From NCBI GenBank assembly GCA_000004985.1, contig GG738889.1: a stretch of DNA of 64,000 nucleotides; one strand, given 5' to 3'. Below the pieces are notes generated by a model. The model saw only the letters and a program-made list of their open reading frames with translations. It was not told the DNA's origin and did not search any database. Source of the stretch: Naegleria gruberi. Its lineage: Eukaryota. Numbering within the stretch: the first letter of the stretch is position 1; every line of letters starts with the position of its first letter. Below, piece by piece: positions 25,046-60,484 of the stretch. Position numbers and translations under genes: made by a program.

Positions 25046-26029
25046 ATGTACTCACTCCAAAAAGCTTCCCGATGCTTATTATCCAACAGCAGACAATCCC
25101 ATCTTGCCACTAGATTTCCATCATCCTTTATTACTTCATCAAATCAAGTAATTTATAGAGGATTTTCACAAACACAATTCAAGAGAAGTGAAGAAAAGAA
25201 ACAAGAGGAATCAAGATCCGAAGAACAATCACAACAACAACAGGAAGAAAAAAAGAGTTACTTTAAGAGATTGTTCTCACCAGCCAATTTGATCTTGCCA
25301 GCCGTGTTCGGAATTGTTTTATATAATTTTGCATCATATGATGTTCGTCAAAAGAAACGTGAGGCTGAATTGGAGAGTAAGTTTTCATTCTGTGATGTTG
25401 ATGATAATAGTAATAATACAATAATTCAACAATGATAATGATAATAATATTAATAATGGAATTAATTGGAATAATTAGAACAAGCAAGTAGCAAGGCTGT
25501 TAAAGCTGTAGGAGCTCCAAAACTTGGAGGTGCTTTCACTCTTGTTAATACTAAAGGAGAAGTTGTTACAGATTCTGAATTTAGAGGAAAATTCATGTTC
25601 ATGTATTTTGGATTTACTAATTGTCCTGATGTTTGTCCAACTGAAATGAAAAAGATGACAAAAGCACTTCAAAAAATTGAAAAGGAAAATCCAGAGTTGG
25701 CAGACAAGATTGTTCCAGTGTTTGTTTCATGTGATCCACCTCGTGATTCATGCACAGCTGTCATTGAATATCTTCAAGATTATCACCCAAGATTTGTTGG
25801 ATTAACTGGTACTCCAGATCAAATCAGTAGAATTTGTAAGAAATATAGAGTTTATTACAATGCTCCTGATTACAAGGAAGGATCACAAGATTACTTGGTT
25901 GACCACAGCATTTTCATTTACTTGATGGATCCATATGGTCACTTGTCTGAATATTTTGCTCAAAATACTACTGCTGATAAGATTTACGAAAGTGTTAGTA
26001 CAGCCTTAAAATCATATAAATGGGAATAA
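25046..26029 (+). CDS. SCO1: SCO1/SenC cytochrome-oxidase copper-chaperone, mitochondrial (~294 aa): join(25046..25376,25479..26029)
   Basis: Mitochondrial presequence and TM anchor, then a thioredoxin-fold region with the CPDVCP copper site (FMYFGFTNCPDVCPTE) and the DYLVDHSIFIYLMDP motif. A 102-nt AT-rich intron (GTAAGT...TTAG) in phase 1 joins the two ORFs. Confidence 0.85.
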
Positions 26030-33367: not shown

Positions 33368-35577
33368 ATGTCTGCCTCCTCTTTTTGTTTGAAAAATGTT
33401 TCATCTCTTGTTTCAAAGAGAAAAATTGCTCCGAGAAAGTTAATCTCCACTAACAAACAAGCTACCACCACTTCAGTAGTAGGATCGAGAAACTTTTCAT
33501 ATAGTATTTCGAGTTTACAATACCAAACTATGGTACATAAGATTTTACAACAATATGCACCTCAAGATCATGGTTTGGTGAGTTCTGGAGATTATTTGCA
33601 AATTACTCCTCATCATATTTTGACTCATGACAATACAAGGTTAGTAGAACAATGAGGAATTGCAATTTAATATTAATTGTGACCTTTTTCAGTGCTGTGA
33701 TGATTAAATTCAAAGCATTCTTTGAGGAAAGTAAGAAACCATTGAAATTCTCCAATCCAAAACAACCAGTTTTTGCTCTTGACCACAATATTCAAGACAC
33801 TTCAGATGCCAATCTTGTAAAATATAAGAAAATTGAACAATTTGCTAAGGATAATGGAGTTGTTTTTTATCCAGCTGGAAGAGGTATTGGTCACCAAGTT
33901 ATGATTGAAGAAGGTTATGCCTGGCCATTGACATTCACTACTGCTAGTGATTCTCACTCAAATATGTACGGTGGTATTGGTTGTTTGGGTACTCCAGTTG
34001 TCAGAACTGATGCTGCTGCCATTTGGGCAACAGGATCCACTTGGTGGCAAGTTCCACCAGTCACTAGAGTTGAATTGACTGGAAAATTGAGAGAAGGTGT
34101 CAGTGGAAAGGATGTTATTATTACATTGTGTGGAATTTTCAATCAGGATGATGTTTTGAATCATTGTGTGGAATTTGTAGGAGAAGGAGTTTCTTCATTA
34201 TCAATTGATGAAAGATTATCAATTGCTAACATGTAGGTTTTTGAACTATTTCAGTAGATATTAAACAAATTTAATAGGACCACTGAATGGGGTGCTCTTG
34301 CTGGTGTTTTTCCAGTCGATGAGAAGACCATTGATTGGCTTAAAAAGTCTCAAAAATCTGAAAAGGCCAATGATATTAAGGAATTGGAAAATAATTACAA
34401 GAAGTATTTACCAGATTCTGATGCTAAATATGTTCAAACCTTGACTTTGGATCTTGGAAGTGTTGAACCTCACGTTTCTGGCCCAAACCACGTCAAGGTC
34501 ATGTCAAGTGTTAGAGAAATCACCAAGAAGAATATTAAGGTCCACAAGGCTTACATTGTATCATGTGTTAACAGTAGAGTTAACGATTTACATCAAGCTG
34601 CCAACGTCATCAGAAAGAGTTCAAAGAAGACTATTGCTGAAGGAGTTGAACTGTACATTTCAGCTGCCAGTGACAAGGTTCAGAAGGAAAGTGAAAGACT
34701 TGGCGATTGGCAAGTTTTGGTTCAAGCTGGTGCCAAGGTTCTTCCACCAGGTTGTGGCCCATGTATTGGATTGGGTGCTGGTTTGTTAGAAGATGGACAA
34801 GTTGGTATCTCAAGTACAAACAGAAACTTTAAGGGTAGAATGGGTTCAAGAAATGCTGAAGCTTATTTGGCCTCACCAGAAGTTGTTATGGCCAGTGCTT
34901 TGAGTGGTGTCATTACTCTTCCTGAATATTATACTGAATCTCAAGCTCCATTACCAAAATTCACCAAGACTAGTGAAAATCAATCAGAGGGAGAAAAATC
35001 AACAACCAAGATTATTGAAGGATTCCCAGAAGTTATAGAAGGAGAAGTTGTTTTTGTTCATCAAGATAACTTGAACACTGATGGTATTTATCCTGGTAAA
35101 TATACTTATAAGGAAAATATTTCTCCAGAAGAACAAGCTCAAGTAGCTATGGAAAATTATGACGTCAACTTTACCAAGATTGCCAAGAAGGGTCACGTTC
35201 TTATTGCTGGTTACAACTTTGGTACTGGTAGCTCTAGAGAACAAGCTGCCACTTGTTTGAAATTTATGGGAATTAAATTGATTGTTGGTGGTAGTTTCAG
35301 TGAAACATACAAGAGAAATGCCACAAATAATGGTTTCTTGTGTATTGAAGTTCCAGCCCTCGTTGACTACTTGAAGCAATCTGTGGGAACTACTAAGGAA
35401 ACTGTTCTCTTGGAAAATAGCAAGATTAGTATTGATTTTAGAAATTCTACCCTTGTTTTAACAACTCCAAAAGAAACTAAGGAATACTCATTCCACCCTG
35501 TTGGCCCAGTTGCTCAAGAGCTTATTGTCTCGGGAGGTTTGGAACCTTTGGTCCTTAACAAGATCAAGAGTCAATAA
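33368..35577 (+). CDS. LYS4: Homoaconitase (LYS4), mitochondrial, alpha-aminoadipate lysine pathway (~703 aa): join(33368..33639,33693..34232,34278..35577)
   Basis: Near-colinear match to fungal LYS4 across both aconitase domains ([21 protein letters not shown]; [31 protein letters not shown]; IANM|[14 protein letters not shown]; [13 protein letters not shown]; swivel-domain [14 protein letters not shown]). Two short introns (53 nt GTTAGT..CAG; 45 nt GTAGGT..ATAG) restore the frame. The track start at 33038 is upstream read-through; the ATG at 33368 gives a mitochondrial presequence. Confidence 0.9.
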
Positions 35578-57124: not shown

Positions 57125-57673
57125 CTAAGCATATTGGTAATAACCATTCATTTCTATCATTTTCGTCTCTTCTTCATTAGAGTGCTTGTTGTATCGAATT
57201 GTTTGAGCTATTAAGATGGTAACAAGTCCAACCATAGAAATGCACAGCACTGAAACCACTATTGCAAGAATAGTGATTGCTATATCTTGACCTTGGTCAC
57301 TGGATATATGGACTGAATCACTTGGTTTTGGATGATAGTTGGTTCTGGTCTTGGAGGAGTTGGAGTTGGAGGAGTAAGAACTTTGGCAACAATCAACAAG
57401 TCATACCTTTCAATTAGAATAGTTTCTGAACATTTAAGAGTGATAATTGTTCCATTCTTAATGTCCTTAATTCCATAAATAACTCTATCAGATAGAATGT
57501 AGACACATTGAAGTGATGAAATGTCAGATATCGTATTTCCATTCATGTCTCTCAACTGATCAGTGAATGTGAAAGTTCTATCTGTAAGAATGTCAGATTT
57601 AACTGTTTGTACAATGGAAAAACCTTTAACCTTTTGAAAACCTTCCAACAGAGTTGAATCATGATTTCTTTAT
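57125..57673 (-). CDS. Fragment of a type-I membrane protein (beta-rich ectodomain, Thr/Pro stalk, TM, short tail); 5' part lost in the assembly gap; apparent frameshift between stalk and TM
   Basis: Track ORF 57280..57648 (...TPPTPTPPRPEPT...) runs into the gap. The TM + tail (IAITILAIVVSVLCISMVGLVTILIA QTIRYNKHSNEEETKMIEMNGYYQYA*) continues in another frame down to the TAG at 57125-57127. Confidence 0.35.
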
Positions 57674-57723
57674 NNNNNNNNNNNNNNNNNNNNNNNNNNN
57701 NNNNNNNNNNNNNNNNNNNNNNN
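57674..57723. other. Assembly gap (50 N)
   Basis: Run of 50 n characters, i.e. a scaffold join of unknown true length. Confidence 0.95.
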
Positions 57724-57936
57724 TTGTCATTACCTCTCCTCTCACAGCATGCATGATGCAGTGAATTGTTAAGAGTGCCAATGAGCACCACTACACGTTT
57801 AAGGATGCCCACTGCTATTGAAAATAACAACAATAGGAGTTTGAATAATGATCGTTACAAGATGGAAGAATGTGTTATTATACTTTCATTCTTTGAAAGC
57901 AAGGAATTCAGTTTATTACAATATTATACACTAACT

Positions 57937-59830
57937 TTACAATTTTGCATTCTTTTCAACAAATTCCTTAACGTGTTCTCTTGGAGTGAAATAGAGTGGA
58001 TTTTTCTTCGAGTCAATATACAGCAATGACTGATCGAAAGAAGTTGGAGGAAGAACTTCTGGATTTTCATGAGATAATTTGAAATGTCTGACAGCATTAA
58101 TAATACCAAAGTAGAGTTCAGTACTTGCAATACGTGATCCTGGACATTTACGAGCTCCAACTCCAAATCTAAGTATTGTAAACATTCAAATGGTCAATTA
58201 GGATGAAATTTTGCAAAAAAACTTACGGAATGGAAACAAAATTATTGACAGGTGCCAAAGGAGATCCCTTTTCATGACGTTCTGGAATGAATTCTTCACC
58301 ACGTGGAACATATTCATCCTTCATTGTGGCCCATCTTTGCATGGCAATGATAATTGTATCTTTTGGAACTGTATATCCACCAATTTCTGTATCTTGGCTC
58401 AATTGTCTTCCCATAGTGAGATAGGAGAAGGAATTTAATCTCAAAACTTCTTCAACAAAGTTTTTAGTGAGCTTGAGCTTTTTGTAATGTTCCTTTGCTA
58501 TTACAAGTCCATTTTCTGAAGTCATTTCTTCAATGGTTGGTTCACCGAAAATTTCAACACTTTCCTTATAAATCTTTTCCTGATATTCTGGATGGTGAGC
58601 AAGTCTGTACAAGCAGTGACCTTTACAATTGGTCAATTGGGACATGAGTTGTGAAAAACTTACATAAAATTCTTACTGTAATATCAATGCCAGCTTGTAA
58701 AAAGTTAATCATGACACTTTCAATTCTGGCATTTGCTTGATCTTGATCTTTAGCTCTATTTTCCAATAATTCCAATAATCTTTCCTTTTCGGATGGATTA
58801 GTTTTGAATCTCTGAATGCAATATCTTGCAAATTCGTATGATTTATCATAATATGTTTCAAATTCCTTAAATTCCTTGGTTTTGTAAAGTCTGTAGAATG
58901 GTGGTTTGTGATCCAACATGATTGCCATATCGAGAACAGAAACTGAATATTTCACAAAGTCACGAATTTCAAATGGAAGAGATTTTGCAATGTCATCAGT
59001 CATTTTCACACCCTATTTCATTAAATTACACAATTTCATTAAATTTCAATCGGTCAACTAGAAAAACTTACAAGGAAAACCTTCAAAACAGCATCAAAAG
59101 CATATCTTGAAGTAGTGTCAACAGTATTAAGCAATTGATACTTGTCACTTTGAGGAACATGTTTCATATTAGCAACAAGTCTTCTCAAAAATTCACCATT
59201 CAATTCAGTCAACTGTGGAATTGTAATATTTTCTTGGAATTCAGGTCTCATGGCAATATTAAACAATTGACGAATTGAATTCCAATCTTCATCAAGTCTC
59301 AACTCAACTGGAGAAAGTACCAAACCTCTTGGTTCTTTATAATATCTAGTACTTTCCAATAACTTTCTTCTATCTTCCTTTTTAAACAATTCAGATAACA
59401 CATATGGATTAGCAATAATCAACATGTTAGTTCCAAACACAGTCAACTTGACTAAATCTCCATATGTATCACACAGGGAAAGAAAATACCCAGAAGGATT
59501 GAATGCATTCTTCTTAATGTCAATTAAATTGCCGATCAGTGGCCATGGCTTTGGTCCAGGAACTTGATTCCAAGGTTTGATTTCCTTTATAGTATTGGCA
59601 ACGTTTTGATGATAGGGACAACCAGCTGTTTGATTTGTTGAATTGTCAGTTTCGACTGTTTGTGCAAGTGTCGAATTTTCCTTGTTATTCGATGTGAAAT
59701 GTCTTGTTTGAGTGGTGGCAGATGAGATCAATGATTGTGAATTTTTAATAACTGCATTACTACTACTACGTAATAATAAACAACATGTGTTTGAGGTGGA
59801 AGTTGTTCTTGTCAAGAGTTTGGAAAACAT
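57937..59830 (-). CDS. Cytochrome P450 with mitochondrial presequence (mitochondrial-clan-like), 577 aa, 4 exons: complement(join(57937..58168,58227..58620,58664..59012,59072..59830))
   Basis: Ser/Thr/Arg-rich presequence with no TM anchor, then VPGPKPWPLIGNL. I-helix AGIDITVRIL|C|HCLYRLAHHPE rebuilt across a 43-nt GTAAGT..AAG intron. Heme loop P|FGVGARKCPGSRIASTEL rebuilt across a 58-nt GTAAGT..TTAG intron. First intron is 59 nt (GTAAGT..ATAG). All exon phases are consistent and the total is 1734 nt. Confidence 0.85.
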
Positions 59831-60484
59831 TTTTTTTTTAGTAGGAAATTAGAGACGGACGGGGAATATATGTGTGATATTATTTGAGATAGTAGATGGA
59901 ATGTGATGATGATGCGATTAGAGCGAAGAGGAGGAAGAGGAAATGCGATACGTCTTTGCACAAGTTACAAAATAGTTGTAAAGTTTCGGATATCAGTTTC
60001 AGAATTTTCAAAGATCAATTATGAAAGTTACTTCAAACTGATTGCACACTTTCAATTATTGTATACTACTTGGGTGTAAATGGGTGGTTAGGGTAAATAG
60101 TTTCATTATTCTTTAGTTGCTTTCCTTGTGAAATTCTGAGTCACTAACTTTTCACAAATACGAGGAAGAGTTTTTTCGAACTTTTTGAATAGATGTGTGG
60201 AAAGAAGGTTTACTTTCGAATTATACGAATTTTTAGTTCTTCATCTGGTGTTATTCGTGCAGTTTCTTCTGTAGCTGGTGTTGGAAAGGTTTCGTTTAGT
60301 TTGATTTTGGTCTTGTTTGTTATTTGGCTTGTCATTGTGATGTTTTAAACAATTAAAGATGAAAATTAAGAAATATTAGAACTTGTTTTTGTAATATATC
60401 TCTCAATTAGGACATTATAATATTATTCTATCCGAATCATCACAAGATTCTAATAATAACAACAGATATTATTAAAAAAATTAC

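Follow-up and report, generated by a model that had tools for sequence, protein, structure and literature searches.

A probable non-animal branch of the mitochondrial cytochrome P450 clan in Heterolobosea

Does the mitochondrial clan of cytochromes P450, usually viewed as an animal innovation, have members outside the animals? The question is raised by a gene at positions 57937 to 59830 of a 64,000-nucleotide stretch of DNA (the whole stretch is called the window here), which an earlier note had read as a P450 of mitochondrial-clan type in an otherwise fungal-looking genome. In PMC10499268, which summarises Omura and Gotoh 2017 and others, the mitochondrial location of P450s is held to stem from the mistargeting of a microsomal enzyme once the animals had separated from fungi and plants, and P450 clans including the mitochondrial one are referred to as "metazoan clans" (PMC8110760). 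Our literature search found no paper that joins the mitochondrial clan with Naegleria, Acanthamoeba, Dictyostelium, choanoflagellates, or Capsaspora. We conclude that the window gene is probably a nuclear heterolobosean gene for a mitochondrially targeted class I P450 that belongs to a deep, non-animal branch of this clan. The contribution lies in recognising and placing the family rather than in a new kind of system, because the sequences have been public since the Naegleria gruberi genome and the proteomic detections of family members stand uncommented in a supplementary table.

The gene lies on the minus strand, and its splice model and Pfam match (PF00067, residues 91 to 547, E = 2e-59) bear out the four-exon P450 proposed in the earlier note. 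Its parts are as follows.

57937-59830, minus strand: P450 coding region, 4 exons, 577 amino acids, stop codon at 57937-57939, from the splice model and translation.
59072-59830, minus strand: exon 1, amino acids 1-253, with the predicted presequence, CPYH, the proline hinge, and helices A-D; donor GTAAGT at 59071.
58664-59012, minus strand: exon 2, amino acids 254-370, ending in phase 1; holds the I-helix motif AGIDIT.
58227-58620, minus strand: exon 3, amino acids 371-501; helices J and K, ExxR, and PERH.
57937-58168, minus strand: exon 4, amino acids 501-577; heme-binding loop, L helix, C terminus, and stop codon.
59013-59071 (59 nt), 58621-58663 (43 nt), and 58169-58226 (58 nt), minus strand: the three introns, of the form GTAAGTTTTT...AATTGACC...AG.

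The joined exons give a coding sequence of 1734 nt that translates into the 577 residues. For exon 2, the donor T/GTAAGT was chosen because it restores the canonical 21-residue AG-to-HP spacing of the I helix. GTAAGTTTTT forms the 5' end of all three introns, and AATTGACC, which lies 13 to 42 nt ahead of the 3' AG, may represent a strong branch-point consensus in the host. The protein carries the signatures of the P450 superfamily, namely FGVGARKCPG (502-511), E427-xx-R430, and PERH (482-485). Since a tblastn search of the window with the spliced protein matched the four exon blocks only, the window holds a single P450 copy. An environmental contig in ENA assembly ERZ929261 (k127_248871, our locus L001), compared with window positions 57900-60430, is ~99% identical over the gene, its introns, and the 5' flank; its introns are the same, and across 500 codons it shows 10 synonymous changes and 1 nonsynonymous change, which indicates that the gene is under purifying selection and is not a chance open reading frame (ORF). 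The prokaryotic gene caller applied to ERZ929261 had broken the P450 into three ORFs, the first of which was extended into the 5' untranslated region.

The genome did not prove to be the fungal one that it had been taken for. The 15 best homologues of the protein (E ≤ 1e-92) all come from N. gruberi, Naegleria fowleri, Naegleria lovaniensis, and Willaertia magna or from unlabelled environmental contigs, with 38 to 69% amino acid identity (44 to 69% for the full-length ones), and the next matches fall to 24%. A fungal genome was rejected on the basis of these heterolobosean P450 homologues and of the matches listed for a homoaconitase-like gene of the window (see below), none of which is fungal. 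The window P450 belongs to a multigene family that has so far been found in Heterolobosea only and that numbers at least seven in N. gruberi; its members are annotated just as predicted or hypothetical proteins. The sequences closest to the window protein are unlabelled environmental ones at 69% and ~99% identity.

The affinity of this family to the mitochondrial clan was assessed from motifs, profile searches, fold comparison, and a tree. The motifs concerned lie at the following positions.

59525-59581, minus strand: hinge IKPWNQVPGPKPWPLIGNL, amino acids 84-102, at the start of the predicted mature protein; common to mitochondrial-clan P450s in a motif comparison across groups.
58677-58694, minus strand: I-helix AGIDIT, amino acids 360-365, with Ile in place of the conserved threonine of AGxDTT.
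58439-58450, minus strand: ExxR motif of the K helix, E427-V-L-R430, with K422 five residues upstream.
58274-58285, minus strand: PERH, amino acids 482-485, the family version of PERF/PERW.
58138-58167, minus strand: heme-thiolate signature FGVGARKCPG, amino acids 502-511, with axial ligand Cys509.

Both the IPGPxxWPLxG-type motif that had been reported to follow the presequence (VPGPKPWPLIGNL, residues 90-102) and the reported heme loop (FGVGARKCPGSRIASTEL, residues 502-519, with Cys509 as heme ligand) were recovered in the spliced protein. The hinge pattern (V/A)KP(F/Y/W)xE(I/V)PGPK is common to the family and the mitochondrial clan, and the consensus of the presumed animal mitochondrial-clan set reads aKPFeeIPGPkgLPlIGnl. 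The R-x-A-x-x-E that follows the heme cysteine is likewise common to the window protein and the clan. K422 aligns with the Lys or Arg of the clan's "YLK" position, at which CYP3 and CYP4 sequences carry an acidic residue (Glu or Asp). Of the clan's hallmarks, the hinge and the first basic residue of the K helix are present in the window protein, and GRR, PERW, and the second of the two K-helix lysines used in adrenodoxin docking are not.

An exhaustive hmmsearch of 1.84 billion (1.84e9) representative proteins with a profile of the family ranked anchor-less proteins with mitochondrial-clan motifs next after the family, just behind two amoebozoan proteins. Below the family itself (>260 bits) came a divergent W. 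magna paralogue (251 bits), two transcripts of the amoebozoan Luapelamoeba hula (215 and 198 bits), and a EukProt sequence without assignment (198 bits), followed by a crinoid CYP24-like, a nemertean CYP27B-like, a mayfly CYP49A1, and a rotifer CYP3047B1 sequence (196 to 191 bits). The single-domain matches at 141 to 198 bits almost all lack a transmembrane segment and have the heme loop FGxGxRxCxGRRxAExE; of the anchor-less matches with mitochondrial-clan motifs, five could be named, and all of these are from animals (CYP24-, CYP27B-, and CYP49A1-like proteins, rotifer CYP3047B1, and a fly protein without a name). Among single CYP4 domains the best scored 124 bits, the two complete CYP3-type domains of a scorpion protein (P0148) scored 74 to 77 bits, and the sole fungal P450 retrieved scored 82 bits against the family profile. 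Long, high-scoring proteins of CYP4, CYP6, and CYP2 type were rejected as relatives: they are tandem-fused gene models whose scores are sums of domains worth 44 to 124 bits each, and they served as sources of outgroup sequences. Word-indexed searches, with the single sequence as well as with a profile, did not reach the mitochondrial clan and returned scattered plant, CYP2, fungal, and bacterial P450s instead.

An AlphaFold2 model was built from the family alignment with N. gruberi paralogue P0001 as its target; the model and the comparisons made with it describe that paralogue, which is 63% identical to the window protein. It folds as a P450. When it was compared with solved structures by Foldseek, mitochondrial P450s took the first five places, led by CYP24A1, CYP11B1, and CYP11A1, with target-normalised TM-scores of 0.68 to 0.76 versus 0.63 to 0.68 for CYP2 and CYP3 structures.

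The tree was made by neighbour joining from 103 P450 domains with 100 bootstraps, using Scoredist or Kimura distances and two gap filters (four settings). It included 15 heterolobosean, 2 amoebozoan, and 5 unassigned sequences, about 50 mitochondrial-type matches, human CYP11A1 and CYP24A1, and a second P450 from the mitochondrial proteome of N. gruberi; the others were 5 CYP3-clan domains including human CYP3A4, 8 CYP4, 3 CYP2, and 6 plant domains, one sequence each from fungi, bacteria, insects, and nematodes, and 3 domains without an assigned type. The sequences used for human CYP3A4, CYP11A1, and CYP24A1 were checked against the Protein Data Bank, where the first two are 100% identical to human entries and CYP24A1 aligns closely over its full length with rat CYP24A1. 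The heterolobosean family was monophyletic in 96 to 100% of bootstrap replicates, and CYP3 was monophyletic in 100%. In all four settings, 90 to 100% of replicates separated the heterolobosean family, the Amoebozoa, the unassigned sequences, the animal mitochondrial clan, and the second Naegleria P450 from CYP3 (including human CYP3A4), CYP4, CYP2, and the plant, fungal, and bacterial sequences. When the tree was rooted on the bacterial sequence, the mitochondrial-type clade was sister to CYP3 plus CYP4, and within it the heterolobosean family branched outside the animals, the amoebozoans, and the others. Placement against the P450 clans, which the earlier note had called for, thus groups the protein with the mitochondrial clan, by neighbour joining and with incomplete sampling of clans; together with the hinge, the exhaustive search, and the Foldseek ranks, it upholds the clan likeness that was first suggested.

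The second N. gruberi P450, XP_002676883, lies inside the mitochondrial-type clade of this tree. Its best hit in Supplementary Data 2 of PMC8134430 is an Emiliania huxleyi "CYP24A1, mitochondrial precursor" (1e-133), which hints at more than one protist lineage of mitochondrial-type P450s, haptophytes included.

The N terminus of the window protein has the character of a matrix-targeting sequence.

59696-59830, minus strand: predicted mitochondrial presequence, amino acids 1-45, judged from its charge, the lack of acidic residues before E51, and the lack of a transmembrane segment.

Residues 1-70 hold 6 Arg/Lys and 3 Asp/Glu, with E51 as the first acidic residue, and residues 1-30 have a net charge of +4. 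The suggestion of a Ser/Thr-rich presequence without an anchor is corroborated by a Ser plus Thr content of 39% and a 19-residue Kyte-Doolittle maximum of 0.52 over residues 1-70 (1.19 for the 9-residue mean). The longest hydrophobic run is CCLLL (residues 16-20); given the low hydrophobicity and this five-residue maximum, there is no endoplasmic reticulum (ER) anchor and no h-region of a signal peptide. In the window protein, R43-H-F45 is followed by T-S, a site of the type R-x-(F/Y/L) before (S/A/T), and R-x-[F/Y] occurs at positions 22-49 in 10 of 13 family presequences. Sites of the R-x-F type are R-3 sites, made by the mitochondrial processing peptidase plus Icp55. From this motif, the presequence is probably cleaved near residue 45, between F45 and the following threonine.

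The same plan runs through the family: 40 to 80 variable residues that are basic, Ser/Thr rich, and free of transmembrane segments are followed by Cys-Pro-(Tyr/Phe/His), 15 to 45 further variable residues, and a hinge of the pattern (V/I)K(P/S)(F/W/Y)x(E/Q)(I/V)PGPK. The presequences are net positive, the 19-residue Kyte-Doolittle mean never exceeds 1.12, and no member has a transmembrane segment. In the annotation of one N. lovaniensis protein, P0008 (XP_044545341, 928 amino acids), a Nudix hydrolase domain is fused to the N-terminal side; most likely the gene predictor joined two neighbouring genes, because the P450 part opens with its own presequence-like stretch and CPYH.

A basic, anchor-less presequence of the kind typical of the clan is thus predicted from the sequence features of the window protein, and for its N. 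gruberi paralogues published TargetP scores and cofractionation can be added. Sheet 1 of Supplementary Data 2 in Horvathova et al. 2021 (PMC8134430) contains 946 putative mitochondrial proteins of N. gruberi, among them three members of the family, which fall in the mitochondrial rather than the peroxisomal proteome cluster (PMC8134430); the main text of that paper never mentions P450s. The three entries (PMC8134430) are as follows.

XP_002672098: closest N. gruberi relative of the window protein (63% identity); 12 unique peptides; TargetP 80; best BLAST hit insect CYP301A1, 1e-31.
XP_002681146: same P450 family; 16 unique peptides; TargetP 70, MultiLoc 95; best BLAST hit insect CYP12C1, 7e-38.
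XP_002672174: same P450 family; 23 unique peptides; TargetP 79; best BLAST hit insect CYP301A1, 2e-31.

The adrenodoxin-type partners whose presence in the genome the earlier note had proposed to check are not in the window; in the related proteome, an adrenodoxin-type ferredoxin (XP_002670556) and NADPH:adrenodoxin oxidoreductase (28 peptides) are both on the same mitochondrial sheet for N. gruberi (PMC8134430). Their presence does not discriminate between explanations, because both are also needed for Fe-S cluster assembly.

Taken together, these observations suggest a mechanism in which the N terminus of about 45 basic, Ser/Thr-rich, and acid-poor residues would act as a matrix-targeting presequence. 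Cleavage between R43-H-F45 and the threonine would leave a flexible mature N terminus bearing CPYH, followed by the KPWxxVPGPK hinge that would lead into the P450 fold. NADPH would supply the electrons, which adrenodoxin reductase and then a [2Fe-2S] adrenodoxin-type ferredoxin would pass on to the heme at Cys509, and the mature enzyme would lie peripherally on the matrix face of the inner membrane. For the window P450, we infer where the presequence is cleaved, where in the mitochondrion the protein lies, and that it depends on ferredoxin; a sterol or another lipid as substrate is only a guess. The family, the amoebozoan sequences, and the unassigned protist sequences would then be deep non-animal branches of the clade that holds the animal mitochondrial clan.

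Several points weigh against this reading. The position of the family as sister to all the rest within the clade has a bootstrap value of 15 to 29%. The tree is distance based on saturated data (~20 to 25% identity) and thinly samples CYP3 and clans 7, 19, 20, 26, 46, and 51; its mitochondrial-type sequences were picked as top matches to the family, and most of the "animal" ones are unnamed, their animal origin being deduced from motifs and from the five named ones. Against solved structures, the family profile scores CYP3A4 at 120 bits, ancestral CYP11A1 at 121, and CYP24A1 at 116, with all others at 86 or less. The heme loop reads G-S-R-I-A-S-T-E, with GSR rather than GRR, so that one of the clan's two arginines is kept (the amoebozoan sequences have GRR); the clan's PERW is PERH here, PDRH in amoebozoans, and PERF in other clans; and the position of the second K-helix lysine is acidic (Glu or Asp in the family and Glu in the window protein). 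The loss of the I-helix threonine could mean noncanonical chemistry. Finally, the evidence on location concerns N. gruberi paralogues and comes from clustering of cofractionation profiles, not from imaging.

The point about chemistry leads to the first alternative, a mitochondrial P450 that is not a classical monooxygenase and that would rearrange or cleave peroxides or hydroperoxides, or activate oxygen with help from its substrate, with little or no input from ferredoxin. This alternative is compatible with a mitochondrial location, because it concerns the chemistry only. The acid-alcohol pair of the I helix, (A/G)Gx(D/E)T(T/S), lacks its conserved threonine in the window protein, and of the 15 family sequences that were compared, 14 read (A/G)G(I/V)D(I/V/A)T, all but a divergent W. 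magna protein (P0044). The loss of the conserved threonine is confined to the core heterolobosean family; amoebozoan and animal sequences and all other sampled clans keep D/E-T. P450s that lack the I-helix threonine include CYP74, CYP5A1, CYP8A1, and P450eryF. On the other side, the acidic D363 and the adjacent T365 do not vary across our 12-sequence family alignment (A1), and T365 could take over the role of the threonine; the basic K-helix residue suited to ferredoxin docking is kept; and ferredoxin and its reductase are present in the N. gruberi organelle. We consider nonclassical chemistry unlikely.

Independent retargeting, the next alternative, supposes that a microsomal ancestor near, for example, the stem of CYP3 and CYP4 gained a presequence of its own, and that the likeness to the mitochondrial clan is convergence imposed by life in the matrix and ferredoxin docking, or a long-branch artefact. 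It draws on the equal profile scores of CYP3A4 and the vertebrate mitochondrial P450s and on the searches of solved structures with the single window sequence, in which CYP3A and vertebrate mitochondrial P450s score about equally and CYP3A5 is the best match. It also draws on the absence of GRR and PERW from the window protein and on the notorious instability of deep P450 nodes, in a tree made by a distance method only. Against it stand the KP(F/Y/W)xEIPGPK hinge, specifically common to the family and the clan; the gap of 17 to 74 bits between the mitochondrial-type single domains (141 to 198) and the best CYP4 domain (124); the 90 to 100% split in four settings, with the independently chosen human CYP11A1, CYP24A1, and CYP3A4 placed as expected; and the top Foldseek ranks of mitochondrial P450s. 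Between the two scenarios of the earlier note, the retention of an old mitochondrial-type lineage therefore fits better than the independent retargeting of an unrelated microsomal P450, which we regard as quite unlikely.

A third explanation keeps the clan truly animal and moves one of its genes by lateral transfer between animals and amoeboid protists (Heterolobosea and Amoebozoa), with expansion afterward. The distribution so far is indeed patchy (Heterolobosea, a single transcriptome from Amoebozoa, and metagenomic sequences without assignment), the host amoebae are phagotrophs, and the bacterial-like homoaconitase of the window indicates that foreign genes occur in the genome. This homoaconitase-like ORF (34384-35577, plus strand) matches environmental sequences at 91% and 83% identity, then bacterial ones at ~60% and a sequence of the heterolobosean Acrasis kona at 58%; the bacterial relatives are of Bacteroidota, Calditrichia, and Ignavibacteria type, and the 120 matches listed include neither Naegleria nor fungi. 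It may be a bacterial-type gene common to some heteroloboseans. Against a transfer of the P450 stand several points: in the tree, neither the heterolobosean family nor the amoebozoan group falls within the animal sequences, both branching outside them, identity to animal proteins is only ~22 to 25%, introns and base composition are of host type (31 to 40% G+C in the window, with short introns), and the family has diversified across N. gruberi, N. fowleri, N. lovaniensis, W. magna, and the window. We therefore regard such a transfer as very unlikely.

A microsomal or secretory P450 with a cleaved ER signal, which could appeal to the short CCLLL patch and to the finding that some N. gruberi mitochondrial N termini act like signal peptides in a heterologous host (PMC8321541), is extremely improbable given a hydrophobic run of five residues, Kyte-Doolittle maxima of 1.19 (9 residues) and 0.52 (19 residues), the lack of transmembrane segments throughout the family, and the clustering of the paralogues with the mitochondrial and not the peroxisomal proteome. 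The outcome named in the earlier note as fatal to its proposal, a place in a fungal microsomal clan together with an ER signal, was not seen: the protein has no anchor, and the fungal P450 lies across the 90 to 100% split.

With a deep, non-animal branch of the mitochondrial clan as the preferred reading, the restriction of the clan to animals, on which the surprise of the earlier note had turned, would not hold; the host is heterolobosean, and relatives occur in the amoebozoan Luapelamoeba. It is how the clan is described that this distribution challenges, not the relationship. The mitochondrial P450 clan is probably of greater age or breadth than is commonly held. A heterolobosean family that has diversified, groups with the clan, has proteomic support for a mitochondrial location, and has amoebozoan relatives contradicts the view of the clan as an animal innovation. 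If the grouping is true, the origin of the clan is far deeper, or a transfer between supergroups is required.

The family has one further conserved element, which lies between the presequence and the hinge.

59609-59620, minus strand: CPYH, amino acids 71-74; C-P-Y is invariant in alignment A1.
The CP motif is also listed for P0034, P0035, P0038, P0044, P0057, P0095, P0179, P0180, and P0053.

C-P-Y is the sole invariant stretch in the first 84 residues of the alignment, in which the next invariant residue is P91, and CP[YFH] is present in all further heterolobosean family members inspected. Among 81 other mitochondrial-type matches, 9 have CP upstream of the hinge, versus 3.2 ± 1.7 expected by shuffling; Luapelamoeba has CPF, and CYP24A1 has LCPL. 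In the AlphaFold2 model of P0001, the P450 fold is confident from about residue 85, and residues 1-84, the CP motif included, have a predicted local distance difference test score of ~25 (<35) and are predicted to be disordered. Packing of CPYH onto the P450 domain was set aside as an idea, the model offering no confident structure for residues 1-84. The resemblance of CP(Y/F/H) to a heme-regulatory motif is a lead only, for putative heme binding.

A more far-reaching combination of these elements, which we put forward tentatively and consider doubtful, would have the ferredoxin-dependent clan arise not in animals but before the split of Discoba and Amorphea, close in time to the last eukaryotic common ancestor, with present-day survivors among heteroloboseans, part of the amoebozoans, and other protists, with an ancestral Cys-Pro heme-sensing motif and a heterolobosean change in oxygen activation through loss of the I-helix threonine. 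If this were true, the Cys-Pro motif would couple import, stability, or heme loading of the apo-enzyme to the mitochondrial heme supply, and it would be kept unchanged in Heterolobosea but survive as a mere vestige in a scattering of animal members (such as LCPL of CYP24A1). The family offers experimentally tractable class I P450s from outside the animals, as N. gruberi can be cultured. Mitochondrial P450s of Naegleria are possibly relevant to drugs because N. fowleri is a pathogen; CYP51 is a known target (PMC5746216).

The surroundings of the gene differ from what had been described. The P450 had been placed beside LYS4 and SCO1, which lie 22 to 32 kb away: the former is the homoaconitase-like ORF described above, and the latter is marked by an SCO1-type CPDVCP motif near 25622 (about 25500-25760, plus strand; FGFTNCPDVCPTE), found in a six-frame search at 32 kb from the P450. 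Directly next to the P450 lie genes for LRR, TRAF-zinc-finger, TPR, and DUF829 proteins. A scaffold gap of 50 N occupies 57675-57724, 213 nt downstream of the P450 stop codon, and an ORF beyond it (57280-57648, minus strand) may be truncated by the gap.

Among known proteins, the window P450 is closest to its own family. XP_002672098, XP_002675173, XP_002677635, XP_002681146, and XP_002672174 of N. gruberi and the homologues of W. magna, N. fowleri, and N. lovaniensis belong to the same family at 44 to 63% identity and share its architecture and motifs over their full length. No obvious one-to-one orthologue is found among these relatives; P0001 and P0003 of N. gruberi and P0002 of W. magna share 65 to 68% identity with each other versus 60 to 63% with the window protein. 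This pattern makes a heterolobosean host related to Naegleria, Willaertia, and Acrasis but outside the genera Naegleria and Willaertia the most likely one, with a distinct paralogue as the alternative. Beyond the family, the animal mitochondrial clan (vertebrate CYP11, CYP24, and CYP27; arthropod CYP12, CYP49, and CYP301; rotifer CYP3047) is the best affinity of the protein by profile, fold, and tree. In this clan a cleavable basic presequence replaces the anchor, as predicted here, and the KP(F/Y/W)xEIPGPK hinge, the FxxGxRxCxG loop followed by R-x-A-x-x-E, and the basic "YLK" residue are shared; the N. gruberi organelle also has partners of the adrenodoxin type. The window protein differs in its ~20 to 25% identity, its heterolobosean host, and its position outside all sampled animal sequences, as well as in GSR, PERH, the acidic second K-helix position, the lost I-helix threonine, and the invariant CP(Y/F/H). 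The CYP3 and CYP4 clans (human CYP3A4 and insect CYP4 and CYP6) are next nearest in the tree and in the scores against solved structures and have the overall fold in common, but they carry an N-terminal transmembrane ER anchor, Glu or Asp at the K-helix position, PERF, and other heme-loop residues, and they lie across the 90 to 100% split.

Three further systems were compared by description or by motif. The mitochondrial CYP450 of Toxoplasma gondii (PMC10499268), compared by description, is a precedent for a mitochondrial, ferredoxin-linked P450 outside the animals but in another supergroup; that paper never uses the word "clan." The ADXR-ADX-P450 chain of Arabidopsis (PMC8794853) is likewise a non-animal mitochondrial precedent from another supergroup. 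The Cys-Pro heme-regulatory motifs of ALAS (PMC7140478) resemble CP(Y/F/H) in that Cys-Pro precedes a residue that is aromatic or hydrophobic and lies in a mitochondrial precursor, within a flexible stretch near the N terminus; ALAS is the control enzyme of its pathway, and the window P450 is a consumer of heme.

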